64,000 bases of DNA from a virus. The stretch lies in IMG/VR virus record IMGVR_UViG_3300047160_010630, positions 32,001 through 96,000 of that record. One strand, written 5' to 3'. A program made the position numbers and the translations under genes. Of this stretch, positions 786-32,009 are shown piece after piece (position 1 is the first letter of the stretch; each line of letters begins with the position of its first letter). Below the pieces are notes generated by a model. It saw only the letters and a list, made by a program, of their open reading frames with translations, made no database searches and was not told where the DNA came from.

Positions 786-1478
786 ATGGCTCAGATTGAG
801 GACACTCTTAACCCGACCGTGGGGAGTGCCACCCGCGAGGCCGCGTCCGAGGCTGGCCGGTATGATCGCTCCGGCGACATGCTCAAGGCCAAGATGACCA
901 ACCTGGTCAAGGGCGCCGGTTTTGTGGGCAACGGCAACCAGGGTCTGACCGACCCGGTCCAGATCACCACCAAGGCCACGCAGGCCACCATGGACCTGCG
1001 GGCCGAGACCTACCGAGGCTTTCGCAACAAGGCCGACGTGGTCAAGGGTCTGAACCCGACCTTCCTGAACCAGTTCGGCAACCTGAAGACCGCGCTGACC
1101 GCTCCGTCGATGAGCGAGACTCTTCAGCAGATCGTGACGGCGGTCGGAAGCCCGGACCTGACCCGTAGCTTCACTGCGGGCAACCTCGGTGTGGGCACGG
1201 TGAGCGGCCTCGTGCCGTTCGACCTGCTGGCGCCGTCGCGCCTGATCTACCCGATGTACACCGTGCTGCGCAACAAGCTCCCCCGCCCGGCGGGTCAGGG
1301 TACGTCGCGCATCGCGAAGGTCTTCACCGGTATCTCCGGCTCGCAGACCGGCGGTCAGGGCGTCATCGACGTGTCGATCCCCGAGCTGGTGCAGTCCGGC
1401 GGAACTATGGCGTCCACCCAGTGGCCGCTGAACCTGCCGGGAACCGGTTCGCAGACCGAGGTTACGCTCAACGTCCCT
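786..1478 (+). CDS. Major capsid protein, exon 1 (231 codons, ends ...TLNVP)
   Basis: SD AAGGAG before ATG 786; phage-like codon bias ends at 1478; joins in frame to exon 2 at 2673. Confidence 0.85.
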
Positions 1479-2672
1479 CACGAAAAGTAGGGGCCTCACA
1501 CGGTGACGTGCGAGTGAATAACCGCGCTATATCGGCGGAGGTCCTCCACCCGGAGCCGAATCGGGACATGGATAACGCCGAGGCAACCTTGAGGCTGAGA
1601 TCAATCAGCCAAAGAGAGAGTCCGTAACGACTACACGCGCGGGATCTGGTACGATAGGTACATGGTAAGAATCAAGGGTCAACAACCTCTCACGGGCGAC
1701 GAGAAGTGCAGCATCGTTCAGCAGTACGTCGCTGGCGCTACACTCAGGGGTCTGGCCGGTGAGTATCGCAGGTCGATCAACACGATACGATCGGTGATCG
1801 CATCGTCCGGTGTTCCGATCAAAGCGAGAGGATATGGGGACCCTCGGGTTCAGGAAGCTGCACTGGCCGCTAGAGGTCATGAATCATTGACTGATAGCGA
1901 CAAGCAGGACATTATTCGTCGATACGCAGACGGCGAACTGCTTACCGAACTTTGCAAGGAGTACGGTCGAGCGAAATCAACTCTGAAGGATATCCTCACC
2001 GAGTCAGGTATTACACTGAGGTCGCGAGGGTACCAGAAGGGCACCGTCTGGCACGATGAATGGCGGAAGTCTCACTGGGAGAGCACTCATACTGACGAGT
2101 TTCGTCAAAAGTCACGTGAGAATCTTCTTGAACGTCTGCCGTCCATGCGAGGCCCGGCTGTAAACACACCGATCGAACGTCGTTTGCACGACGCGCTTAA
2201 GAAGGTCGGCATTGGATTCAGCACGCAGCAACCGTTCCTGGGTCGCTATCTTGTTGATATATTGATTCATCAACAACCTATCATCATTGAAGCAGACGGA
2301 GCCCAACATTACCTCCCTGACGCCAAGGAGAGGGATGCGGCACGGGATGCCGCTCTAACGCAGGCTGGGTATCGGGTGTTTCGGTTTACCGGAAGCGAGA
2401 TTAACAAAGACTCGATGGCATGCATTCATCATGTCGTTGATGAGTGTAATCTTGTCCCAGATGAAGAGCCTGTGTTTGACATCCGAACGTCACTTCCTAG
2501 CCCGATGAAGGGGCGTAAGCATACGCCCGAAACTCGTGCCAAGATGAGTGAAGCTGCAAAGCGCCGTTGGCAATCCAGATCATGACATAGTCTGTTCTGC
2601 ACGCAATGGTAAAGGTGCAGAGATCGGCAGAAATGACCGGTCCCACTGTATTACAGTGAGTAACAATAAAAG
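1479..2672 (+). mobile_element. Group I self-splicing intron (1194 nt) in the major capsid gene
   Basis: Exon 1 ends in U (CCU), which forms a U.G pair in P1 (cccu|cacgaaaaguagggg); intron ends in G2672; P10 gua/uac; P3 ccgcgc 1522-1527 with gcgcgg 1637-1642; P7 gacta 1629-1633 with tagtc 2588-2592; P8 gatctgg 1643-1649 with ccagatc 2575-2581; splicing gives NVP|YRFFGLTESL in frame. Confidence 0.92.
1662..2585 (+). CDS. Intron-encoded homing endonuclease: HTH repeats + DUF559/Vsr-like nuclease + NUMOD3-like tail
   Basis: Located in the P8 loop; IIEADGAQH and RDAARDAALTQAGYRVFRF (DUF559-type); C-terminal SPMKGRKHTPETRAKMSEA; lower GC. Confidence 0.85.
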   Translation: MVRIKGQQPLTGDEKCSIVQQYVAGATLRGLAGEYRRSINTIRSVIASSGVPIKARGYGDPRVQEAALAARGHESLTDSDKQDIIRRYADGELLTELCKEYGRAKSTLKDILTESGITLRSRGYQKGTVWHDEWRKSHWESTHTDEFRQKSRENLLERLPSMRGPAVNTPIERRLHDALKKVGIGFSTQQPFLGRYLVDILIHQQPIIIEADGAQHYLPDAKERDAARDAALTQAGYRVFRFTGSEINKDSMACIHHVVDECNLVPDEEPVFDIRTSLPSPMKGRKHTPETRAKMSEAAKRRWQSRS

Positions 2673-3806
2673 TACCGCTTTTTCGGCCTTACGGAATCGC
2701 TTTCTTGGCTCGCACAGTTCGCGGGCCAAGGATTCGAGGACATTTCTGCCCTCGCCAACCTCATTCTCCTCCAGGAAATGATGCTGGGCGAGGAATACAT
2801 GATGCTCGCGGGCTCCAGCACCACGCTGGCCGCCCCGACCGTCATCGGCCTCACCGCCCGCACCGCCGGATCCGGTGAGACCACCGTCGGTGTCAACGCG
2901 AACTTCACCGTTCTCGTGACCGGCACCAACTACTACGGCGAGACCGTGGCGGGTGCGTCCACTACGATCGCCACCACCGCCGGTCAGGTGGTCGATGTCA
3001 CCATCGGCCCCCAGCCCGGTATCCAGCAGTACAACATCTACGTCTCGACCAACGCGGCCCCGACGCGGGCCAACGCGTGGCTGGTGAAGTCGGGCGTGGG
3101 TGGTGTCCGGTACACCGTTCAGGGCACCCTGCCGACCACGGGCACCAACCCGCCGGTCGGTGACAGCGGTACGGGCACCAACACCCGCATGGAAGGCATC
3201 ATCCCGACGCTGACCGGCAAGTCGGCGGCCTCGGGCATCTACCCGGCCAACTGGCAGGGTGGCTACGTCAACCAGTCGGTGGGCACCCACCTGTCCTACA
3301 ACGCCATCTACACCGCCCTCCAGGGCCTGTGGAACGGCGCGCAGGGCGCGGGCAACAACCCGGGCGCGTTCCGTGCGGACCCGGCGGAGATCATCGGTGA
3401 GGGTGGCGACATCATGCGCCTCTCGAACGACGTGATCTCGCAGGGTTCGGCCACCAACTACCGTCTGTTCCTGGAGCAGCCGGACGTGGGCGGCGTCAAG
3501 GTCGGCGCGGCGGTGTCGGAGTTCCAGAACCCGATCACCCGGTCGATCCTGAAGATGGTCGTGCACCCCTGGCTGACCCAGGGTACGGCCATGCTGATGA
3601 CCTACCAGCTCCCGCAGACGTGGACGAACGTTGCCAACGCGTGGGAAATGACGGTCGTTCAGGACTATGTCAGTATCGCGTGGCCCGTCATTGACGCGAC
3701 CTTCCGGTACAGCATCTTCCTGTACGGCGCGCTGGTCGGTCACGCCCCGCAGTATTCTGGCATCTTGCAGGGACTCCAGGTTACGGATGTAACACCCTTT
3801 TCGTAG
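2673..3806 (+). CDS. Major capsid protein, exon 2 (spliced product 608 aa, with an inserted beta-rich domain)
   Basis: Frame open from 2673, 35 codons upstream of the ORF-track start 2778; capsid-like C-terminus VHPWL...YGALVGHAPQYSGILQG. Confidence 0.85.
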   Translation, partial: YRFFGLTESLSWLAQFAGQGFEDISALANLILLQEMMLGEEYMMLAGSSTTLAAPTVIGLTARTAGSGETTVGVNANFTVLVTGTNYYGETVAGASTTIATTAGQVVDVTIGPQPGIQQYNIYVSTNAAPTRANAWLVKSGVGGVRYTVQGTLPTTGTNPPVGDSGTGTNTRMEGIIPTLTGKSAASGIYPANWQGGYVNQSVGTHLSYNAIYTALQGLWNGAQGAGNNPGAFRADPAEIIGEGGDIMRLSNDVISQGSATNYRLFLEQPDVGGVKVGAAVSEFQNPITRSILKMVVHPWLTQGTAMLMTYQLPQTWTNVANAWEMTVVQDYVSIAWPVIDATFRYSIFLYGALVGHAPQYSGILQGLQVTDVTPFS

Positions 3807-3848: not shown

Positions 3849-4949
3849 ATGCAGAACGAAGCGAAGAAGCAGCGTCGGACTACCCCAGCGGACCGGGAGG
3901 AGATGGTCCGGATGTACGCCTCCGGCGCATCCACGACGGTCATCTCCCGGACGCTGGGGTTCTCCGAGCCATCGATCAACTACCAGCTCAGGAAGGCTGG
4001 CGTAACTCTGCGCTCGCCTCGGGAGCAGTCTTCACAGACCCCGCAGCATGTCGAAGATCAGATCATCGACATGTACATGGCCGGAGTGTTGTGGCCGGAT
4101 ATCGTCGCGGAGACCGGCGGTCCCACGTCCGAGAAGACCCTGTACAACATCCTCAAGCGTCGCGGTCTGCCTCCTCAGCGCTATCAGAGCCTGACCCCGG
4201 ACGACCGCGAGGAGCTGGTGTCCCTGTTCACTCAGGGTGACAGCTACGAGGCAATCTCGAAGACTATGGAACTCCCTGAACGGTACGTGCGACATTTCTT
4301 CAGGGAGGACGAGCCGTCGGTCTTCCGGGACATCGACACCCCCGAGAAGGCTTACTGGCTTGGATTCATCACCGCCGACGGAACCATCGTCGGGATTCGA
4401 CCGGGAAACCTTCGCGTCGAAGTCACCCTAAAGGGTTCGGACAGCGAGCATTTGGAGAATCTGAACAGATTCACGAGTAATACTCGTGACCTTAAGCACT
4501 ATGAGGCTGAGACGATCTCCGAAGGTGTTCGTCCCTACGCCAGGTTCGTCGTGTCTAATAGGGCTGTCGTAGCGGATCTGCTACGAGGCGGTGTACACCC
4601 CAACAAAACTGGACGTGAGAAGCCCTGGGATGGTCCTGAGCATCTGATGCGCCACTACTGGCGAGGGGTTATCGACGGTGACGGATCGATCTACGACTCC
4701 CACAGGAGCCCTACCCCGAGCGTAGTGCTTGTCGGGTCCGAGGATCTGTGTTCCGCCTTCTTGCTGTGGGCCAACAAGGTTTGTGGTACGAAAACTAGGG
4801 TCCAGACTGATCTTCGCAGCCCTAATCACTACAGGGCTTCCGTGGGCGGTAACCGGCAGGTTCAAGAACTGGTCCACGAGCTGTACCGCGACTGCGACAC
4901 GTTCCTCCGGCGCAAGATGGGCCGTGCTCAGCGGATCTGTAAATTCTGA
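3849..4949 (+). CDS. Free-standing LAGLIDADG homing endonuclease with N-terminal HTH repeats
   Basis: AYWLGFITADG and HYWRGVIDGDGS motifs; flanks too short for an intron core. Confidence 0.85.
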   Translation: MQNEAKKQRRTTPADREEMVRMYASGASTTVISRTLGFSEPSINYQLRKAGVTLRSPREQSSQTPQHVEDQIIDMYMAGVLWPDIVAETGGPTSEKTLYNILKRRGLPPQRYQSLTPDDREELVSLFTQGDSYEAISKTMELPERYVRHFFREDEPSVFRDIDTPEKAYWLGFITADGTIVGIRPGNLRVEVTLKGSDSEHLENLNRFTSNTRDLKHYEAETISEGVRPYARFVVSNRAVVADLLRGGVHPNKTGREKPWDGPEHLMRHYWRGVIDGDGSIYDSHRSPTPSVVLVGSEDLCSAFLLWANKVCGTKTRVQTDLRSPNHYRASVGGNRQVQELVHELYRDCDTFLRRKMGRAQRICKF

Positions 4950-5631: not shown

Positions 5632-6309
5632 ATGACTACGCCGAATTCTATCGGACTTCGCTCCGGAGTACTTCAGCCGCCCGGAACGGCCTTCGATCAG
5701 GCCAATCCGGTCTTTGACGGGCCGGTCACCTTCACCAGCAACAGCTCGCTCACCGTCGATGGCAACATGGTCGTCAACGGTACGTACAACGTGCCGTCTC
5801 TCACGCTGAATCAGCCGACCGTCAACGGTGGAACGATCACCAATTCCGCTTTCAATAGCGGGATCACTCTCGCCCCCGGTTCTTCCGTGTCCTACAACGG
5901 GGCCATCTCCACGGGAACGAATGGGGTGGTCGCTGAAGCCTTCGGGGCCGGTGGACCGGCCGCCACTGAAGCGCAGATTGTGTTGGGTGGAGCGTGCCCC
6001 CCGGGGTCGACCATCACCTCGGTAAGTGGTCATGACCTAGGGGGCAGCTTTACCATTCGCGCTACGTCCGCAAGTGGGACGCCGGGTGGCGCCATTTTCA
6101 CGTTCACGTTCTCCAGCCCCATGCCCTCTGTCCCCAAGGCGATCTATCTATCGTCTTTCGATCTCTCCTCAAACACTTCGTACGTAAGCTCGATCTTCGA
6201 TTCCACAAGATCGATCGTTTCCACGACTGGGTACACCCTGGACAGCATCAACGGGGGGTTCTTCGGAAGCGGTCGTCTCTGGTCCTTCTACTATATGGTC
6301 CTTTTTTAG
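5632..6309 (+). CDS. Fibre/adhesin-like protein, paralog family F copy A
   Basis: PPG...FDGPV N-terminus, G.D.GG.F, FTFTFSSP.PS.P, aromatic C-terminus. Confidence 0.65.
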   Translation: MTTPNSIGLRSGVLQPPGTAFDQANPVFDGPVTFTSNSSLTVDGNMVVNGTYNVPSLTLNQPTVNGGTITNSAFNSGITLAPGSSVSYNGAISTGTNGVVAEAFGAGGPAATEAQIVLGGACPPGSTITSVSGHDLGGSFTIRATSASGTPGGAIFTFTFSSPMPSVPKAIYLSSFDLSSNTSYVSSIFDSTRSIVSTTGYTLDSINGGFFGSGRLWSFYYMVLF

Positions 6310-12418: not shown

Positions 12419-13192
12419 ATGGTTGATCGTGCGTGCTCTTTTCCTGAGTGCAGCAGGCCGCACAAGGGTCGGGGTTACTGTCAGAGCCATCTGAAGATGG
12501 TGCGCAACGGGGTCCCTCTGCGGCCTATAAGGGATCAAGTCGTCAGAAATAGCTATACCTACGATCACGAATTCTTCTCTTCTGTAAACACAGAAGAGAA
12601 GGCTTACTGGCTGGGGTTCATTACCGCTGACGGATGTATTTCGGATACCGGTGATAGCAGGTTTCTCAGCATTAGGCTTCAAGACAGGGACCATGACCAT
12701 CTCGTCAAATTTTGTCGGTCTCTGAAATCTAACCGCCCGGTCCTTCGGTCTCCGGGCGTGTCCTATATGTCTGTGAGCTCTCGCCAAATAATTGATGATC
12801 TCATCTCCCTGGGGGTCACTCCGAGAAAGAGCCTTACGGCCGCTCCGTGGTCATCTGCTTCTCCGGAGTTGGCACGGCACTATATCCGGGGATTGTTCGA
12901 CGGGGACGGGTTCCTTCACAGGGAGAAGCGGGGCGGCTGGGCAGCAGGATTCGGATCGGGCAGACGGCTATTGGTAGAATTCTTCGCCGCGTACGGGATT
13001 ATCGCAACTGGGTCTACTGCAAAAATTCGAACAGCTTTCACCTCGGCGGGCAACGAATTCTTCGACTGGCGCGTGAACGGTGTCAAGGTAACCGGCAATC
13101 TGATCTCCTGGTTGTATAAGGACACGTCGATGTATTTGGATCGAAAAAAGTCCTTGGCAGACGAACTTATTGGTTCCCAGGAGCCCGATTAG
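12419..13192 (+). CDS. Free-standing LAGLIDADG homing endonuclease with N-terminal Zn finger
   Basis: AYWLGFITADG, HYIRGLFDGDG; CSFPEC...GYCQSH; low GC. Confidence 0.85.
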   Translation: MVDRACSFPECSRPHKGRGYCQSHLKMVRNGVPLRPIRDQVVRNSYTYDHEFFSSVNTEEKAYWLGFITADGCISDTGDSRFLSIRLQDRDHDHLVKFCRSLKSNRPVLRSPGVSYMSVSSRQIIDDLISLGVTPRKSLTAAPWSSASPELARHYIRGLFDGDGFLHREKRGGWAAGFGSGRRLLVEFFAAYGIIATGSTAKIRTAFTSAGNEFFDWRVNGVKVTGNLISWLYKDTSMYLDRKKSLADELIGSQEPD

Positions 13193-13219
13193 TACCACCT
13201 TTAGGGGGTGATTCATACA

Positions 13220-14173
13220 ATGCCCTTCGGTAGCGCGTACATTTCGCCGTCCATGCTCACAACCGCCCCTACCGGGTTCCCGTGGTCCATAATTCCTTTC
13301 CCAAAAGCGACCAGCGCCCAGCAGCTGGCGGAGCAGACCAACATTTGTTGGAGAGCCACCTCTACTATCGACGGCTATTGTTTATAGGGCAACCAGGTCC
13401 TGCGCTCCACCATCAACAACGAGAACATTTCCGGCCCGGGGAACTACCGCGTCAATATCCAGAACGGCACGGGCAACGTCCGCATGATCCTGCGCCGCTG
13501 GCCGGTGATGCAGATCGTCGCCGTCCAGGTGGCCAACAACGCGGTGTTCCCCCGGCAGTGGCGCAATGTGCCGACCGGGCTGTTCGACGTCGAGCACCCG
13601 GTCCTCGGTGTGTACACGAACACCGCGCCGACGTCCAGTGCCGACGGCGGCCAGTCGATTCTGATCGCTCCCGGCTACGCGGACTGGAGCAATGGGCGTG
13701 ACGGCTTCCGGTTCCTGGTCTCCTACCTGAACGGCTGGCCGCACACCGGCCTGGTGACGGCTTCCACGGCCGGGACGACGACGCTGTCCGTGGACGACGT
13801 CACCGGCTGGGCCGGGGCCTTCGGGACCATCTACGACGGCGCGCAGACGGAGACGTTCGAGGCCGTCAGCGTGACGGCGACGGCGCCGCTGAGCCTGCCG
13901 AACAACGTGGGGACGGTGCAGACGGGCCCGGGGACCGTCACCTTGAGTTCCCCGCTCCTGTACGCGCACCCGGTCGGCACGATCGTCACCTCCCTGCCGG
14001 GCAGCGTCATCTGGGCGACCATTCTGGCCGCCACTGCCCAGGCGCTGGAATCGGGTGCCACCAGTGTCAGTATCCAGAACATTCCTGGGTCGCTGACCAC
14101 GGGTGGGCACGGTATCGCGGATATCAAGACGGAGTACGAACTGCTGCTCGATCCGTATCGCCGCGTGATATGA
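13220..14173 (+). CDS. Putative head-tail adaptor, interrupted in frame by TTA-TAG-GGC at 13382-13390 (314 aa if the 9 nt are skipped)
   Basis: ATG 13220 after GGGGGTG; 54 codons to RATSTIDGYC, then L * G, then NQVLRS... in the same frame as ORF 13484-14173; adaptor-like C-terminus LLLDPYRRV. Confidence 0.75.
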
Positions 14174-14217
14174 TATGTTACTTGCGTACAGCTCAGGATT
14201 CGTGTACTGTAAGAAAC

Positions 14218-14982
14218 ATGAGTGAACGATTCTGCTCTGTCGCAGACTGCCCCAACCCGAAGCTCAACAACACTCCTGTGGGCCCTCTGTGCTCCAAGCA
14301 CTACCAGCGATACCGGCGCCGGGGGTCCGTAGATTCGGTCGCCAAGCCGCACGCCTACACAAAGAAGATCACGGGAGCCCCCTGCACCGTGGGAGAGTGC
14401 ACGAATCCCGTCGTTGTTCGGGGAATGTGTGGCGCCCACTATCAGCGCAACGTCAAGCATGGTAATCCCAGTACGCTTCTGCTGGACCGTAGCCGCACCC
14501 CCGAAGAACGGTTCTGGTCGTTCGTCGACAAGAATGGCCCTGAAGCGTTCCACTCGCAGACCGGAAAGCCCATCGGAAAGTGTTGGAACTGGTCCGGAGG
14601 GGTCTCCGATGGATATGGGATGTTGTGGCTCAACAAGAAAAACATCCACGCGCACAGATTCTCTTACCGGTTGTATCGGGGAGCTACTCCTGACGGCCTG
14701 GAGCTGGACCACCTGTGCAGGAACCGGTCCTGTTCGAACCCGGCGCACCTTGAGCCAGTCACCCACAAGGAGAATGTGCGTCGGGGGGAATCCCCAAGCG
14801 CCGTGGCGCGCCGTACTAAGCGGTGCAAGATCGGGCACGAGTACGAGCCTTCGTCAGGTCCTGGCCCCCGGGGCTGTCAGACGTGCAGGTACTGGCACAC
14901 TGAGGCGCACAACGCCAAGATCCGCAACCGCCCCTTCGAGCAGCTCGCGCTGTTCCCGGTCAGTTGGGTGAGAACCGAATAG
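14218..14982 (+). CDS. Free-standing HNH homing endonuclease
   Basis: CWNWSG...YG...AHRFSY...LDHLCRNRSCSNPAHLEPVT..EN; two N-terminal Zn fingers; start chosen from promoter position. Confidence 0.85.
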   Translation: MSERFCSVADCPNPKLNNTPVGPLCSKHYQRYRRRGSVDSVAKPHAYTKKITGAPCTVGECTNPVVVRGMCGAHYQRNVKHGNPSTLLLDRSRTPEERFWSFVDKNGPEAFHSQTGKPIGKCWNWSGGVSDGYGMLWLNKKNIHAHRFSYRLYRGATPDGLELDHLCRNRSCSNPAHLEPVTHKENVRRGESPSAVARRTKRCKIGHEYEPSSGPGPRGCQTCRYWHTEAHNAKIRNRPFEQLALFPVSWVRTE

Positions 14983-16443: not shown

Positions 16444-17880
16444 ATGGCCTTCCCCACGATTACCGAGCGCTACGGGTCGCTTTCCGCTACCGGCCTGGCG
16501 AAGGAAGCGACTTTCGGTGTGCCGGTCGCGGCCACCACCTTCCTGCCGATGACCGGCAATACGATGGAGATGGACCCCGGGTGGTTCTCTCCGCACGTGA
16601 TGCAGGCGGCTCGCGACCTCCAGATCTACAACCTGTACGGCGAGTACAAGTTCCACGGCGCGCTTTCCGGGCCGCTGTTCCCGTCGAACGCCATCGCCCT
16701 GCTGGTGGCCTCCATCGGGCAGGACAACGCGGTCGGCACCGGTATCTTCGGCACGCCGGTCACGCCGACGTCGACCACGTCCAGCGTCTCCACCGTGGCC
16801 GGTGCCACGACGATCACGGTGACGTCGCCCACGGGTTTCGCCACCAACCAGGAAATCCTGATCGACACCGGCCAGCTCCTGGAGGTCCGCAAGATCTCCG
16901 GTGTCGCCGGGTCGGTCATCACCGTGGCCGATGCCCTGTTCTTCGCGCATCCGAGTGGTGCCACCGTCTCCACGGCGACCACGACCACGCTGAGCGCCCC
17001 GTCGATCGTCGGTGCGACGACGGTCACGGTCACGTCGGCCACCGGCATCGTGCAGAACTCGTTCGTCCAGATCGACGTCAACAGTGTCACCGGTACGACG
17101 ACGTCCGAGGTGCGCCGGGTCACCAACGTGGCGACCAACACACTGACGCTGGACACGGCGCTGGTCTACGCCCACGCGAGCGGCGCCCAGGTCGTCCTGG
17201 TGACCACTCCGTACACGCACACCATCACCCAGCAGAACAGCCTGCCGTCGCTGACGGTGGAGAAGAACCTCGGTTCCTTCCAGAGCCTTCAGTTCGCCGG
17301 GTGCAAGGTCAACAAGTTCGACGTGAAGGCACCGACCGGGAACAACCCGGTGGACATCACGGCGGACATGATGGGCCAGTCGGTGCTGTCGCTGACCACG
17401 CCGACGGCCGTGACGGTGACCAGCGAGTCTCCGTTCGTGTTCGCGGAGGCCGTGCTCACCGCTTTCGGCAACACCCGATTCGACGCGCGCAACATCACGA
17501 TGTCGATCGAGAACGGTCTGAAGGAGACCTACACCTATTCCGGGAACCACGGGCCGAGCTTCATCACGCCGGTCACCGTTCACGGTATGGGGTCGTTCGA
17601 CGTGGTGTGGTCCAGCCTGACGGATGCTACGTACGGTGACTTCACCAAGATGGTGAACGGAACGCTGGGCTCGCTGATCTTCTCGGTCATCCACCCGGCG
17701 AGCGCCGGGACGGTGACGTTCTTCCACCCGCAGATCGTTCTGAATAAGTTCGTGAACGACGTGAAGATGGAAGATGTAATTTTGTCTACGATGAACTACG
17801 AGGCTACGCGTCCCGTATCCGGCAACAACCAATTCACGGTCCAGGCCTACGTCTCGAACCAGACCTACCTGTCATATTAA
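16444..17880 (+). CDS. Major tail tube protein with two inserted repeat modules
   Basis: GLAKEATFG N-terminus, YTHTIT, LPSLTVEK, GCKVN; upstream of chaperones and tape measure. Confidence 0.8.
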   Translation: MAFPTITERYGSLSATGLAKEATFGVPVAATTFLPMTGNTMEMDPGWFSPHVMQAARDLQIYNLYGEYKFHGALSGPLFPSNAIALLVASIGQDNAVGTGIFGTPVTPTSTTSSVSTVAGATTITVTSPTGFATNQEILIDTGQLLEVRKISGVAGSVITVADALFFAHPSGATVSTATTTTLSAPSIVGATTVTVTSATGIVQNSFVQIDVNSVTGTTTSEVRRVTNVATNTLTLDTALVYAHASGAQVVLVTTPYTHTITQQNSLPSLTVEKNLGSFQSLQFAGCKVNKFDVKAPTGNNPVDITADMMGQSVLSLTTPTAVTVTSESPFVFAEAVLTAFGNTRFDARNITMSIENGLKETYTYSGNHGPSFITPVTVHGMGSFDVVWSSLTDATYGDFTKMVNGTLGSLIFSVIHPASAGTVTFFHPQIVLNKFVNDVKMEDVILSTMNYEATRPVSGNNQFTVQAYVSNQTYLSY

Positions 17881-18460: not shown

Positions 18461-21327
18461 TGGCTGGTCTCACCGAGTTCACCGTCATGGCGATCATCGA
18501 CGCCCAGGACAAGGCCTCCCGCGTCCTGGACAAGGTCATCTCCACGGTGGAGGAACTCGGCTCCGTCATGGACAAGACGGCCGAGGACGTCAAGGCCGCC
18601 GCCGACTCCATCGACGACAGCCTGCTCAAGACCGCCAGCGGCGCCGACGCCCTGGCTCTGGCCAACGACCGGGTGACAGCTTCGGAGGCCAAGCTGACGC
18701 TGGCCACGCAGGAGCAGGCCGCCGCTGAAGACCTGCTCCGGGAAGCCCGCGCCACGGGTGCGAGCGATGCGGAGCTGATCGCCGGTGAGCAGCTCCTGGC
18801 CAACGCCGAGCGCGACACGGCCAAAGCGGCGGCCGAGCTTGAGGCGGCGCAGATCCGGGTCAACGAGATCACCAAGCTCCGGACCGAGTCCACCCGGGAG
18901 CTGGCGGTTGCGGAGGAGGAGTCCTCCACGGCCAGCAGCGGTATTGCTGGGGCGGCGCTGGCCGTGGCCGCAGGGTATGCCATCGCCGGTGCCGCCACGG
19001 TGAAGTCGGCGGCCGACTTCCAGACGGCTACGACGCACCTGGTCACAGATGCGGGCGAGTCCGGCGACAAGATCGCCTGGGTCTCCCAGCAGATGATCGA
19101 CATGGCCTCCCAGGTCGGCTTCACGGCGACGGAGCTGGCCAATGGTATGTACCACATCGAGTCTGCCGGTATCCACGGGGCGAAGGGCGTCGACGTCCTG
19201 CGGGTCGCTGCCGAAGGCGCGAAAGTCGGCGGCGCCGACCTGGACACGGTGACCAAGACGCTGGCCGGTACGATGGCCGCGTACGGCAAGGATTCCCTCG
19301 CCGACGCCATCAAGTTCACGAACGAACTTATCGCGACCACGTCCCAGGGTGACGTCCGCCTGCAAGACCTGACGACGACACTCGGCAACGTCGTCCCGAT
19401 TGCGGCTGCTGCCGGAATCACTTTCGACCAGGTCGGCGGCGCGATTGCCACCATGACCACGCAGAACATGACGGCCGCGCAGGCGTCGCAGAACCTGGCC
19501 CACTTCATTCAGTCCCTGGAACGCCCCAACGGTGTGCAGATCCAGCAGATGCAGGCGCTCGGACTGACGCAGGAGGATGTGTCAAAGTCCCTGGCCGGTC
19601 CCGGAGGACTTGTCGGCACGGTCGAAATGCTGACGGACGCCATTTCCAAGCACACCAAAAACGGACAGGTCTTCATCAACACCTTGCAGAACTCGGAGAC
19701 CGCTGCCCACGCCGCCAATATCATGCTCGCGAACATGGATCCGACGTTGCGGAATCTTTCCAACGAGCTGGTCAGTGGGGCTATTAATACCAAGGACTAC
19801 GAGAAGGCCACCAGGGAAATGGGCCCAACGGCGACCAAGCAGGGGTCGCAGTTCCTGAGCCTCAACGAGAAGATGGGCGCCTTCAACAAGCTCCTGGCGA
19901 ACGGCAGCGGGGAGTCGGAGAACTTTAATACGGCCATGTCCAACCTCACCGGCGGACAGATCGGTCTCCGGACGGCGCTCATGCTGTCCGCCCAGGGCGG
20001 CGACTACTTCTCTGAGTCGGTCAACGAGATCGCCAAGGCCGGGAACGAGGGCGGCGGGGCGGTCAAGAACTGGGACACGATCCAGAAGACGTTCAACCAG
20101 AAGCTGTCCGAGGCGAAGGCGTACCTGGATTCCCTGGCCATCACCATCGGCCAGAAGATCATCCCGTGGATCGAGAAGCTGGGCGAGAAGCTCGCACCGG
20201 TCGTGGAGTGGCTGGGCAAGAACAAGACCGTGGTCGAAGCCCTGGCCATCGGCCTGGGCGGTGTCCTGCTCACGGCCATCGGTGTGATCACCATTGCGCT
20301 GGCCGCCCTGGCGATCCCGATCATCGCCGTCGGCGCACTCGTCATACTGCTGAAGAAGGCCTGGGACGAGTTGGCGAAGTGGTTCGAGGACCACAAGTCG
20401 ACGTTCGTCGAAGCCTGGGACTACGTCGTGAAGAAGTTCGACGAGCTGACGAAGTGGCTTGACGAGCACGTGATCAAGTGGGCCAAGGAGCAGTTCGCGG
20501 ACTTCCTGACGTGGTGGCACGCGCACGCGTCCGAGATCTCCACCGTCTGGAAGATCGTGTGGGGCGAGATCCTGGTCGTTCTCGAAGTAGCATGGGGAAA
20601 TATCAAGGCCGTCCTCATGTTCCTGTCGGCTTTCTGGGTGGTCATCTGGGGCGGTATCAAAGACTTCCTGAAGCTGATCTGGGACGAGGTTTCCGGAATC
20701 ATCAAGTCTGCGCTCCATTTCATCGAAGGAATCATCGGCATCGGTCTCGACCTCATCACGGGGCACTGGAGCAAGGCGTGGAGCGACCTCGGCCAGACGG
20801 TCGTGAACTTTCTGACCGACGGCCAGGACATCATCGTCAACTTCTTCAAGGATGCCGACAAACTCCTGGTCGACGCCGGAAAGAACATCGTCAAGGGCCT
20901 CGTCAACGGGTTCAAGTCGGCCATGGGCAGCATCAACGACTCACTCGGCAGTATCGCCAGCACCATCAAGAGCTACTTTCCCTGGTCACCGGCTAAGAAG
21001 GGCCCCCTTTCAGGGAGCGGGGCCATCGAGATCGCCGGAAAGAACATCGGGACACTGCTGGCCTCCGGCATGCACGATTCGGTGACTACGGTGGCCAGGG
21101 CGTCCAGCAGGCTCGCCGGAGCGGCGGGGATCAACGTCGGCGCCGGGTTCGGCGCGGGCGGACTGGCGGCCGTCGGGCCGGGCGTCGGCGGCGGCGGGGG
21201 CATCGTGATCGACATGCGCGGGTCCCAGCTCATGTCCAACCAGGACATGGACATCTTCGTGGACCGCGTGGGTCGGCGTCTCGCGACCCGTATTCTGCCT
21301 GCGGGTGGGGTCAGAATCAGGTCGTAG
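18457..21327 (+). CDS. Tape measure protein (TP901-type)
   Basis: 956 aa, Ala-rich helical; TATELANGMYHIESAG core; Trp-periodic repeats; PWSPAKKGPL. Confidence 0.92.
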   Translation: MMAGLTEFTVMAIIDAQDKASRVLDKVISTVEELGSVMDKTAEDVKAAADSIDDSLLKTASGADALALANDRVTASEAKLTLATQEQAAAEDLLREARATGASDAELIAGEQLLANAERDTAKAAAELEAAQIRVNEITKLRTESTRELAVAEEESSTASSGIAGAALAVAAGYAIAGAATVKSAADFQTATTHLVTDAGESGDKIAWVSQQMIDMASQVGFTATELANGMYHIESAGIHGAKGVDVLRVAAEGAKVGGADLDTVTKTLAGTMAAYGKDSLADAIKFTNELIATTSQGDVRLQDLTTTLGNVVPIAAAAGITFDQVGGAIATMTTQNMTAAQASQNLAHFIQSLERPNGVQIQQMQALGLTQEDVSKSLAGPGGLVGTVEMLTDAISKHTKNGQVFINTLQNSETAAHAANIMLANMDPTLRNLSNELVSGAINTKDYEKATREMGPTATKQGSQFLSLNEKMGAFNKLLANGSGESENFNTAMSNLTGGQIGLRTALMLSAQGGDYFSESVNEIAKAGNEGGGAVKNWDTIQKTFNQKLSEAKAYLDSLAITIGQKIIPWIEKLGEKLAPVVEWLGKNKTVVEALAIGLGGVLLTAIGVITIALAALAIPIIAVGALVILLKKAWDELAKWFEDHKSTFVEAWDYVVKKFDELTKWLDEHVIKWAKEQFADFLTWWHAHASEISTVWKIVWGEILVVLEVAWGNIKAVLMFLSAFWVVIWGGIKDFLKLIWDEVSGIIKSALHFIEGIIGIGLDLITGHWSKAWSDLGQTVVNFLTDGQDIIVNFFKDADKLLVDAGKNIVKGLVNGFKSAMGSINDSLGSIASTIKSYFPWSPAKKGPLSGSGAIEIAGKNIGTLLASGMHDSVTTVARASSRLAGAAGINVGAGFGAGGLAAVGPGVGGGGGIVIDMRGSQLMSNQDMDIFVDRVGRRLATRILPAGGVRIRS

Positions 21328-29604: not shown

Positions 29605-29644
29605 TTCCTTGTTCCTTTCTGCGCTGGGTAGAATCTCCACCCTG

Positions 29645-29727
29645 TGTGCTCGGAGGGAGTCGAACCCTCACGTCTCTTGGACGCCGGTACTTGAAGCCGG
29701 TGCGTCTGCCTGTTTCGCCACGAGCAC
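29645..29727 (-). tRNA. tRNA-Leu(CAA)
   Basis: Acceptor gtgctcg/cgagcac, Leu-type D-loop, long variable arm, TTCGA T-loop; C.A mismatch closing the anticodon stem. Confidence 0.85.
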
Positions 29728-29731
29728 TCAG

Positions 29732-29812
29732 CAGAGGGTAGAGGTAACGCTCCCCGAGCCTTTCAGCTCCCCAGATTTTCAAGACCTGTTTGCACCTTGT
29801 GCGGTACCCTCT
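29732..29812 (-). tRNA. Atypical tRNA-Ser(UGA)
   Basis: Acceptor agagggt/accctct, G73, anticodon arm caggt-cttgaaa-atctg, long variable arm; non-canonical T-loop AGCGTTA and minimal D-arm. Confidence 0.65.
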
Positions 29813-30156
29813 ATATGTGTGACTGTTTTACCGTGATGGTCACTTGAATTGAGTATTACTACACGATTTTCTGGAACTATATAAACTGCCAGAAGATCTG
29901 ATTTATTTCCGTCGAACTTTATTACTCTTGTCTCATTTGTATTGTGTCGTACTGATTTAAGCTGTACGGCATAGCTCTTTTTGGATCCTTTGTAGGAGGT
30001 GCTTTTAACCTCTACTCTGGAAAGGATTCCTTCTTTAACTACTACCATGTCAAAGTTCGCATTACCAAAAACTGGTAGATAAACATCGTAACCTTGACGC
30101 ACGAATTCATGTGCTACGGCTGCTTCTCCGAGTCTACCCTTCTTTACTGTGTTCAC
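29779..30156 (-). CDS. PD-(D/E)XK homing endonuclease (I-Ssp6803I-like), free-standing in the tRNA cluster
   Basis: KGRLGEAAV..EF...GY.V.LP....FDMV......RVEVKS; AT-rich; start GTG 30156 or ATG 30165. Confidence 0.8.
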   Translation of the reverse strand: MNTVKKGRLGEAAVAHEFVRQGYDVYLPVFGNANFDMVVVKEGILSRVEVKSTSYKGSKKSYAVQLKSVRHNTNETRVIKFDGNKSDLLAVYIVPENRVVILNSSDHHGKTVTHIEGTAQGANRS

Positions 30157-30177
30157 GCGTCTCATAATACAATAAAG

Positions 30178-30248
30178 AACGGACGACGGGAATCGAACCC
30201 GCACCTCCAGCGTGGAAGGCTGGGGCACTGCCGTTATGCAACGTCCGC
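30178..30248 (-). tRNA. tRNA-Gly(UCC)
   Basis: Cloverleaf, loop cttccac, U73. Confidence 0.88.
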
Positions 30249-30249
30249 G

Positions 30250-30332
30250 TGGAAGTGGAGGGAATTGAACCCCCGAGCCCGAAGGATCCGGTTTACAGCC
30301 GGACGCAACCAGCCAACAGTTGCCTCACTTCC
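30250..30332 (-). tRNA. tRNA-Tyr(GUA)
   Basis: tccgg-ctgtaaa-ccgga, variable arm, A73. Confidence 0.88.
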
Positions 30333-30337
30333 AACAG

Positions 30338-30411
30338 GGTGACCTACGGGAATCGAACCCGCAACCTTCGGTGCCACAGACCGACGCTCTGCCAATTGAG
30401 CTAAGGCCACC
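30338..30411 (-). tRNA. tRNA-His(GUG) with genomically encoded G-1
   Basis: tcggt-ctgtggc-accga; C73; G directly 5' of position 1. Confidence 0.9.
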
Positions 30412-30438
30412 ATTGCCGGTGTACTGCATGAATCGTAG

Positions 30439-30512
30439 TGGCGGGGACAGGATTTGAACCTGCGACCTACGGGTTATGAGCCCGCCGAGCTACCGAGCTG
30501 CTCCACCCCGCT
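30439..30512 (-). tRNA. Initiator tRNA-fMet(CAU)
   Basis: 1:72 mismatch (A/C); GGG/CCC in anticodon stem; loop ctcataa. Confidence 0.92.
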
Positions 30513-31328: not shown

Positions 31329-32009
31329 TTAGAAGGGGAGGCCGCCGTTGTCGAACGGCAGCGCCGGGGGAGCGGTGTCCTGGGGCGCCTCGTCCTGCGG
31401 CTCCTCCTCCTCCTCCTCGGCCTTGTCCTCGTCCAGGACGTCGTACTTCTGCGGAGGCTCGTACTCGGCCTCTTCCTCTTCCTCTTCCTCCTTGGTGGAG
31501 TCCGCGACCGGCTGCGGCTGGGCGACCGGCTGCGGCTGGACAGCGGGCTGGGGCTGTGCCATCATCGGCTGCGGGGAAGCTGACGGGGCGCCAGAAGCCG
31601 TGCCGGTTCCGGGAGCCTTCACGTTCTTGAGCTTGCTACGGGTCTGCCCCTGCCACTCGTCCTCCTCGACCTCGATCTGGCAGGCCTTGCCGATCAGGTC
31701 GTTGGCGACCTTCTCCATGGAGGGATCGGTCCCGAAGTAGGCGCCGTTCAGGCCGAGTGCCGCCATGTGCCGGAAGAAGAATCCGAGCGCGATGGCGCTG
31801 TCCGGGCTGATGGTGAAGGTGTTGGGCATCGGCTTGCCCTGGAACGGACCCGAGGTGATCTTGAAGACGGCCTTGATCTGGTCCTTGCCGTTGCTGTTCT
31901 TGGTGTGGCTGGCCTTGGTGATGACCGCGTCGTAGGTCCCCTTGGGGATCGTGACGAACCCGGCGTCCTCGGCGGCCTTCTGGAGATCCTTCCAGGAGTA
32001 CTGCGCCAT
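31329..32009 (-). CDS. DUF669-type single-stranded DNA-binding protein
   Basis: IPKGTYDAVI, LIGKACQIEV, acidic tail ending LPF. Confidence 0.8.
   Translation of the reverse strand: MAQYSWKDLQKAAEDAGFVTIPKGTYDAVITKASHTKNSNGKDQIKAVFKITSGPFQGKPMPNTFTISPDSAIALGFFFRHMAALGLNGAYFGTDPSMEKVANDLIGKACQIEVEEDEWQGQTRSKLKNVKAPGTGTASGAPSASPQPMMAQPQPAVQPQPVAQPQPVADSTKEEEEEEEAEYEPPQKYDVLDEDKAEEEEEEPQDEAPQDTAPPALPFDNGGLPF

Follow-up and report, generated by a model that had tools for sequence, protein, structure and literature searches.

A TTA-led, stop-bearing insert in a head-tail adaptor gene of an uncultured soil actinophage: a probable new case of UUA-led ribosome bypassing beside a homing-endonuclease gene

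Programmed translational bypassing is among the rarest modes of decoding, and it is proven for gene 60 of phage T4 and for the byp elements (byps) of yeast mitochondria. For T4, Bonocora and colleagues reportedly tied the coding gap of gene 60 to the homing endonuclease mobA in 2011, the gap being said to protect its carrier from the carrier's own endonuclease. Here we analyse a stretch of 64,000 nucleotides (nt) of viral DNA (positions 32,001 to 96,000 of IMG/VR record IMGVR_UViG_3300047160_010630; "the window", numbered from its first letter) in which the gene of a putative head-tail adaptor is interrupted by nine nucleotides, TTA TAG GGC. The source is an uncultured soil actinophage. We propose that ribosomes probably hop over these nine nucleotides, and that the insert may have arrived together with the homing-endonuclease gene that lies directly upstream.

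The closest described cases are found in Streptomyces. In phage phiHau3, two 10-nt UUA-led blocks in the terminase gene were proposed to be bypassed when the bldA tRNA is lacking (Smith et al., 2013, as cited in PMC10732093); the known cases of UUA-mediated bypass are the large terminase genes of phiHau3 and of two Streptomyces prophages, and of 100 terminase genes just 3 contain UUA-led blocks, which are 7-10 nt long (Antonov et al., 2023, RNA Biol, PMC10732093). The phiHau3 terminase yields a full-length product in Streptomyces, and its bypass junction peptide was detected by mass spectrometry in E. coli with UAA replacing UUA (PMC10732093). Up to now, UUA-led short bypass has thus been proposed for just four sites in three terminase genes. 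Read directly from the phiHau3 DNA (take-off codon / insert / resume codon), gap 1 is GGC / TTACTCCGGT / AAG with landing triplet GGT, and gap 2 is TCT / TTAACGGTCC / ACG with landing triplet TCC. The layout in the window is identical: a take-off codon, an in-frame UUA, a few bases, a landing triplet and a resume codon. The gap is also short (7-10 nt there, 5-15 nt in the adaptor family described below) and interrupts a late, essential gene in a phage of high-GC actinobacteria. There are, however, a number of differences: (i), the interrupted gene encodes a terminase in phiHau3 and a head-tail adaptor in the window; (ii), the window insert is in frame, with UAG right after UUA; (iii), take-off codon and landing triplet are synonymous at both phiHau3 sites and non-synonymous in the window; (iv), a homing-endonuclease gene adjoins the window adaptor, while "homing" is not a word in PMC10732093; (v), a product was observed for phiHau3, whereas that of the window adaptor is predicted. 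The window insert is most likely a new case of the UUA-led bypass kind, in a different gene, the published cases being limited to a few Streptomyces phage terminase genes.

Two other systems offer more distant comparisons. The low-level hops seen in E. coli at hungry or stop codons (Weiss et al., 1987; Gallant et al., 2003, both as cited in PMC10732093) resemble the proposed event in that peptidyl-tRNA detaches at a slow A-site codon and re-pairs a few nucleotides downstream; as presented there, they are constructs or low-efficiency errors, whereas the adaptor arrangement is a fixed part of an essential gene in nature and is met again in relatives. The byp elements of Magnusiomyces capitatus mitochondria (Lang et al., 2014, as cited in PMC10732093) are likewise short inserts, many and mobile, placed in protein genes and skipped in translation between matching take-off and landing codons, but according to that account they measure 27-55 nt, belong to a yeast mitochondrial genome and are neither UUA-led nor endonuclease-linked.

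The adaptor gene is encoded on the plus strand, from ATG 13220, preceded by an AGGGGG ribosome-binding site, to TGA 14171-14173. Its frame reads GAC GGC TAT TGT (13370-13381), TTA (13382-13384), TAG (13385-13387), GGC (13388-13390) and then AAC CAG GTC from 13391, and downstream of the TAG this same frame is open to the TGA. A search with the window adaptor, the stop being read through (P0001), returned 618 protein homologues, typically 311-317 amino acids (aa) long, of which the nearest are P0002 (81% identity) and P0003 and P0004 (74%). In 27 of 27 aligned protein homologues the motif D-x-x-[C/V/L]-NQ is found with a three-column gap opposite L-stop-G, and no residues stand at the place of the insert either in 80 IMG/VR loci or in all metagenome loci covering the site; the 9 nt have no counterpart in about 118 distinct homologues. 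Because the three-column gap is present in all homologues, the nine nucleotides are an insertion and not three substituted codons, and a stop-bearing 9-nt insertion in the adaptor gene is thereby confirmed relative to the homologues. Megablast and tblastn searches against cultured phages returned nothing useful. A first-pass annotation of this DNA had read TGT, TTA TAG GGC and AAC in a continuing frame and had asked whether homologues read DGYC-NQ without the three codons; both readings hold, the former at 13379-13393 with the frame open to the TGA, the latter in the 27 proteins and the 80 IMG/VR loci.

Under translation table 11 the gene appears as a 55-codon 5' open reading frame (ORF) and a 229-aa ORF from ATG 13484, and the protein database entry for the window's adaptor holds only this 229-aa tail (P0006). 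Both the ORF and the entry would suit a split gene, in which a 55-aa peptide from the N terminus joins a C-terminal protein with a start of its own (e.g. ATG 13484) to form a working adaptor. We find this extremely unlikely: such a pair would lose residues 57-88 (32 residues), including the invariant Q59, R62, T64, E68, G72, P73 and R77, where the G+C content at third codon positions (GC3) is 0.94, neither a start codon nor a ribosome-binding site is found after the stop, and the insert-bearing genes of relatives show no comparable restart.

A collinear protein would probably be restored by a UUA-triggered ribosome hop of 9 nt over TTA TAG GGC, which would give ...DGYC-NQVL... and a 314-aa HK97 gp6-like adaptor. 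A ribosome with peptidyl-tRNA-Cys on UGU 13379-13381 would stall with UUA in the A site; the peptidyl-tRNA would release UGU, the mRNA would slide by 9 nt and the peptidyl-tRNA would re-pair, at codon positions 2 and 3, with GGC 13388-13390, after which decoding would restart at AAC, leading to the collinear 314-aa protein with the tryptic junction peptide ATSTIDGYCNQVLR. Ribosomes that decode UUA would instead terminate at the adjacent UAG, after 55 residues. The bypass itself and its efficiency are inferred, whereas the design of the insert and its recurrence are observed. Three other routes were tried and rejected: a cognate hop from GGC 13373 to GGC 13388 loses Tyr-Cys, has no slow A-site codon and breaks the rule of the other sites; a one-base frameshift cannot rescue an in-frame, stop-bearing insert; and re-initiation after the UAG has no start codon to use.

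The design recurs in the gene family. Once duplicate contigs are removed, the family set comprises 119 distinct genes, 112 uninterrupted and 7 interrupted, and the latter hold eight inserts, with boundaries fixed by protein alignment: that of the window and seven in six other phages (Table 1). The inserts are 5, 7, 7, 8, 9, 10, 11 and 15 nt long and all fall within codons 18-55. In all eight, a TTA in the upstream reading frame opens the insert directly after an intact sense codon, and the final triplet of the insert is compatible with the take-off codon (fully synonymous in three, matching only at positions 2-3 in five; a G-U wobble could account for the first-position mismatch in L124, L153 and L029). 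Six of the eight shift the frame, two (window and L124) contain stops, and the remainder of each interrupted adaptor gene is intact. For six frame-shifting and two stop-bearing inserts, the only explanation that covers all eight is that ribosomes leave the codon ahead of UUA and land on the triplet that closes the insert. TTA makes up 7 of the 34,656 codons of the 112 uninterrupted homologues (0.2 per 1000), so eight TTA-first inserts cannot be chance. The hop geometry put forward in the first-pass annotation (UGU take-off, starved UUA, GGC landing, AAC resume) is the same in seven family inserts and in the two phiHau3 gaps; the landing match at two of three positions, which it had noticed in the window, is the pattern of five of the eight family sites; and among the relatives in which it had envisaged a TTA insert with a stop, six phages have TTA-led inserts, that of L124 carrying TGA.

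Where else such gaps might occur was addressed in several ways. Neither a tblastn comparison, all against all, of the DNA within 4 kb on either side of the gene in 81 phages nor a comparison of four whole genomes (including those of the window and L040) found another short gene break of this kind, the sole other genuine break in these comparisons being a 1188-nt endonuclease-bearing insertion. Two composition-based scanners for further TTA-led gaps, which recovered the phiHau3 controls but missed N-terminal sites, returned only gene junctions or antisense frames. A candidate gap at G002 20701-20724 was rejected as non-coding DNA beside a tRNA.

The adaptor family therefore adds eight natural sites of varied length, frame and landing, including in-frame stop-bearing gaps and non-synonymous landings, which together form a ready mutational series on what a short hop needs. 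If they are bypassed as proposed, the first-position mismatch at five of the eight sites would mean that, in short hops that occur in nature, a P-site tRNA needs no more than two base pairs to re-pair. Because gene callers split or truncate genes with such gaps, annotation pipelines for high-GC phages should check for TTA-led gaps.

Table 1. Features of the window and TTA-led inserts of the adaptor gene family (inserts given as take-off codon / insert / resume codon).
Feature	Position	Strand	Length	Description
LAGLIDADG homing-endonuclease gene, free-standing	12419..13192	+	257 aa	LAGLIDADG_3 E 2.3e-6; phrog_4645 endonuclease E 8.6e-42
Adaptor gene part 1	13220..13381	+		codons 1-54 (...ATSTIDGYC), low GC3; aligns to residues 1-54 of 314-aa homologues
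GGAGAG	13350..13355	+		formed by rare Arg codon AGA 13352-13354; ~25 nt upstream of take-off
Take-off codon TGT (Cys54)	13379..13381	+		last homologue-matching codon, directly 5' of TTA
Insert TTA TAG GGC	13382..13390	+	9 nt	TGT / TTATAGGGC / AAC; UUA, UAG stop, putative landing triplet GGC; not in homologues; take-off/landing TGT/GGC
Adaptor gene part 2	13391..14173	+	260 codons	AAC resume codon, NQVLR... to TGA; GC3 ~0.9, family-invariant residues kept
HNH homing-endonuclease gene	14170..14982	+		overlaps adaptor stop; HNH_3 E 1.9e-11; phrog_826 E 3.9e-39
Five-tRNA cluster	29644-30512	-		Leu-CAA, Gly-UCC, Tyr-GUA, His-GUG, Met-CAU
L040 site 1			7 nt	GGT / TTATGGT / ATT; take-off/landing GGT/GGT
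L040 site 2			8 nt	AGT / TTACAAGC / TAT; take-off/landing AGT/AGC
L124			15 nt	ACA / TTAGGGCCCTGAGCA / GGA; in frame, has TGA; take-off/landing ACA/GCA
L029 (= L108)			7 nt	ATC / TTAGGTC / CCA; take-off/landing ATC/GTC
L130			11 nt	ACT / TTATGTGAACC / GGC; take-off/landing ACT/ACC
L153			10 nt	ACA / TTAGGTCGCA / GGC; take-off/landing ACA/GCA
L160			5 nt	GGT / TTAGC / ATC; take-off/landing GGT/AGC

Several points nevertheless weigh against a working hop in the window. The exact insert allele is known from a single metagenome assembly, no other IMG/VR contig having a match to the exact 26-mer that spans it, and the source record is a linear metagenome contig of 108 kb, 88% complete. GGC is non-cognate for tRNA-Cys, the G at position 1 standing opposite A36 without even a wobble, unlike both phiHau3 sites and three family sites, which land on synonymous codons. 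Finally, the RNA fold at the window's site is no better than shuffled (z -0.58). The single assembly, the incomplete contig and the non-cognate landing triplet would also suit an allele that is dead or artefactual, arising either by misassembly or, in a defective genome, by a nonsense insertion, with no full-length adaptor made from this contig. We hold this to be unlikely: the same non-random design appears in seven inserts from independent assemblies and in phiHau3, a TTA-first insert is very improbable by chance at 0.2 TTA per 1000 codons, the rest of the adaptor gene keeps all family-invariant residues and a high GC3, and no short break of the kind is seen in other conserved genes when compared with three related genomes.

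With regard to signals that could assist the hop, small hairpins bring take-off near landing in the folds of the sites, and the fold is better than in shuffled sequences at just two of them, L040 site 2 and phiHau3 g7/8 (z about -2). The invariant Arg45 is encoded by AGA, giving UGGAGAG, in the window and in L040 (about 4136-4138), both of which have inserts near codon 52-54, and by AGA in 0 of about 85 other distinct homologues tallied. The minimum-free-energy fold pairs the window's GGAGAG with CUCC 3' of the landing site, with a z-score that is not significant; GGAGAG is possibly a 5' signal or a stem arm.

Three further loci of the family deserve mention. The uninterrupted gene of L157 (Ga0078972_1000618, 3001-3120) has two in-frame N-terminal TTA codons, in TGG TTA GGT TGG and GCC TTA GGC; the first lies between identical TGG codons, which makes an in-frame 9-nt hop possible, and the 5' GC3 is low (-0.18). 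The contigs of L112 (1-10) and L147 (1-10) start 1-3 codons from the place of the window's insert (...NQVLR / ...LRAT), and these starts may be assembly breaks caused by insert or endonuclease polymorphism.

The rarity of TTA extends to the whole genome of the window, where it accounts for 1 of 11,539 codons in conserved genes (0.09 per 1000) and is absent from four AT-richer endonuclease genes, as the first-pass annotation had noticed in the genes it checked; the genome to which L040 belongs, with 55.7% GC, likewise makes little use of TTA. This avoidance fits hosts that decode UUA poorly. Also in favour of the hop, homologues are present in assemblies from Actinomycetota, among them Streptomyces sp. 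and Catenulispora. The same annotation had stated that the window has no amber suppressor and that its Leu tRNA is CAA, which is true of the entire 108-kb record: its eight tRNAs, namely the five of the cluster in Table 1 and three further ones (Ala, Thr, Thr) upstream of the window, include none that reads UUA or UAG, neither a tRNA-Leu(UAA) nor a suppressor. This result bears on a further explanation, standard decoding with readthrough of the UAG, whereby UUA would be read as Leu, UAG by a near-cognate tRNA and GGC as Gly to give a 317-aa adaptor. Readthrough alone would restore the downstream frame, the insert being in frame, but besides lacking a suppressor tRNA in the record, it would add three residues at the end of helix 1, at a place where zero of about 118 homologues tolerates a residue, and it would not account for the relatives, where six inserts built alike shift the frame; we judge it very unlikely. 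Whether the proposed hop over the insert serves stage-specific regulation, with gating by bldA and restriction to young mycelium as the first-pass annotation suggested, is another matter, and we find this doubtful. The first-pass annotation had called such control the reverse of normal TTA control; it is no reversal, being the same regulatory proposal as was made for phiHau3 (PMC10732093).

The identity of the interrupted gene is supported at the level of fold. The window adaptor has no Pfam or PHROG family match by sequence, and the assignment was made on an AlphaFold model of the homologue P0004, 74% identical to it (pLDDT 80). Along its full length, this model aligns to the neck of phage 812 (Z 9.7, 196 residues aligned), to the GTA adaptor (Z 9.4, 176/194 aligned) and to HK97 gp6 (Z 8.4, 94/96 aligned), and also to the Mycofy1 and DT57C neck proteins. 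In the model, a gp6-like helical core spans the N and C termini, with beta domains inserted between the terminal helices, and the insert falls where the long N-terminal helix (residues 33-54) ends. The gene lies between the head and tail modules, with the tail tube gene downstream at 16444-17880. An HK97 gp6-like head-tail adaptor is the identity to which the predicted fold points, in keeping with the "adaptor" label of the first-pass annotation. EF-Tu, which gave the top Foldseek matches, was set aside as the match is confined to one beta-barrel domain.

The adaptor gene is flanked by two homing-endonuclease genes, a free-standing LAGLIDADG gene that ends 27 nt before the adaptor start and whose GC3 is 0.60 versus about 0.9 in the neighbouring genes, and an HNH gene. 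Both are insertions because neither is present at the adaptor locus of L040. Homing-endonuclease genes are often intron-borne, and their presence on both sides could speak for a change at the RNA level, the 9 nt being removed or altered before translation by a mini-intron, editing or transcriptional slippage. We see hardly any likelihood of this: positions 13150-13550 have no Rfam match at E up to 1, a self-splicing fold cannot fit in nine nucleotides, and a rule set in codon register, with its in-frame TTA and its landing triplet, implicates the ribosome and not RNA processing.

The first-pass annotation was right about the insert itself; it omitted the upstream LAGLIDADG gene, which is the strongest contextual clue. 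Homologous LAGLIDADG genes occupy the same spot in L124 and L029 (interrupted) and in L049 (uninterrupted), and among distinct genes with enough upstream DNA, an upstream-adjacent LAGLIDADG gene accompanies 3 of 7 interrupted versus 1 of 100 uninterrupted ones (Fisher p 7e-4). In steps of 18 codons, the GC3 of the window adaptor is 0.78, 0.72 and 0.61, then 0.94, 0.94 and 1.0 right after the insert, and the 5'-minus-3' difference of -0.20 is extreme among 106 homologues, beside that of L049 (-0.21). This jump at the insert, with an endonuclease-like low GC3 on its 5' side, would suit a co-conversion tract with its end at the insert. Given the upstream gene, the insert looks less like a purpose-built regulator than like the half of a selfish cassette that confers immunity. 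We are almost evenly divided on whether the insert is indeed the self-protection half of a mobile cassette of which the LAGLIDADG gene is the other half. In such a cassette, the endonuclease would cut the uninterrupted allele near the insert site, where we infer its target to lie, and during repair the cut genome would receive the endonuclease together with the insert and the recoded 5' part of the gene, as happens with T4 mobA and the gene 60 gap. This origin has to contend with four insert-bearing phages that lack an adjoining endonuclease gene and with L049, which has the endonuclease and no insert, so that the link is statistical, not strict; in the four interrupted genes the endonuclease may have been lost.

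In L049 (= L123, 3212-4240), where the LAGLIDADG gene lies directly upstream of the uninterrupted adaptor gene, the N-terminal residues diverge at the insert hot spots (AATG for APTG, SSIPTPQ for SIIPFPK), and immunity may have been acquired there by substitution, not insertion.

By analogy, the window arrangement would work like the T4 mobA/gene 60 cassette without being a member of it. As in T4, a free-standing homing-endonuclease gene stands directly upstream, a non-coding insert lies ~50 codons into the gene, and the gap is opened by a stop or a rare "hungry" codon. In contrast to T4, the insert is 9 nt and not 50, the endonuclease is of the LAGLIDADG and not the HNH type of MobA, and there is no sequence homology; the take-off and landing triplets are TGT and GGC in place of a GGA...GGA pair, and the window has no sign of a nascent-peptide signal or of an elaborate stem-loop. 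Relatives with a gap and no endonuclease resemble the "hit and run" cases that are described alongside mobA/gene 60 in a preprint (Manning and Atkins, 2022, bioRxiv 10.1101/2022.08.31.505936).

The endonuclease link and the composition break suggest a source for such gaps and tie the Streptomyces-phage case to that of T4. A broader proposal, which we put forward tentatively and hold a little short of evenly balanced, is that UUA-led gaps generally are the immunity half of actinophage cassettes derived from LAGLIDADG (and other) homing endonucleases: a tiny insert would split the endonuclease's target, and starved host UUA would let ribosomes hop the scar. If true, the T4 mobA/gene 60 arrangement would be a general strategy and not a curiosity.

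Homing endonucleases are frequent in this part of the genome, where at least four such genes, the HNH gene at 14170 among them, lie within 15 kb of the structural module. A second LAGLIDADG-like endonuclease gene, with N-terminal HTH domains, is located at 3849-4949. The 1188-nt insertion mentioned above (1484-2673) lies within a conserved gene of ~608 aa, the two parts of which (786..1490 and 2778..3806) share one frame; this gene is uninterrupted in three related genomes (72-74% identity), and the insertion contains an ORF (1662..2585) for an endonuclease with DUF559/Vsr-like, NUMOD3 and HTH domains and has no Rfam group I intron match even at E 1. Between 5632 and 9568, six consecutive plus-strand ORFs of 207-225 aa (starting at 5632, 6325, 6953, 7607, 8285 and 8924), of which the three scanned had no Pfam match, may form an array of paralogues.

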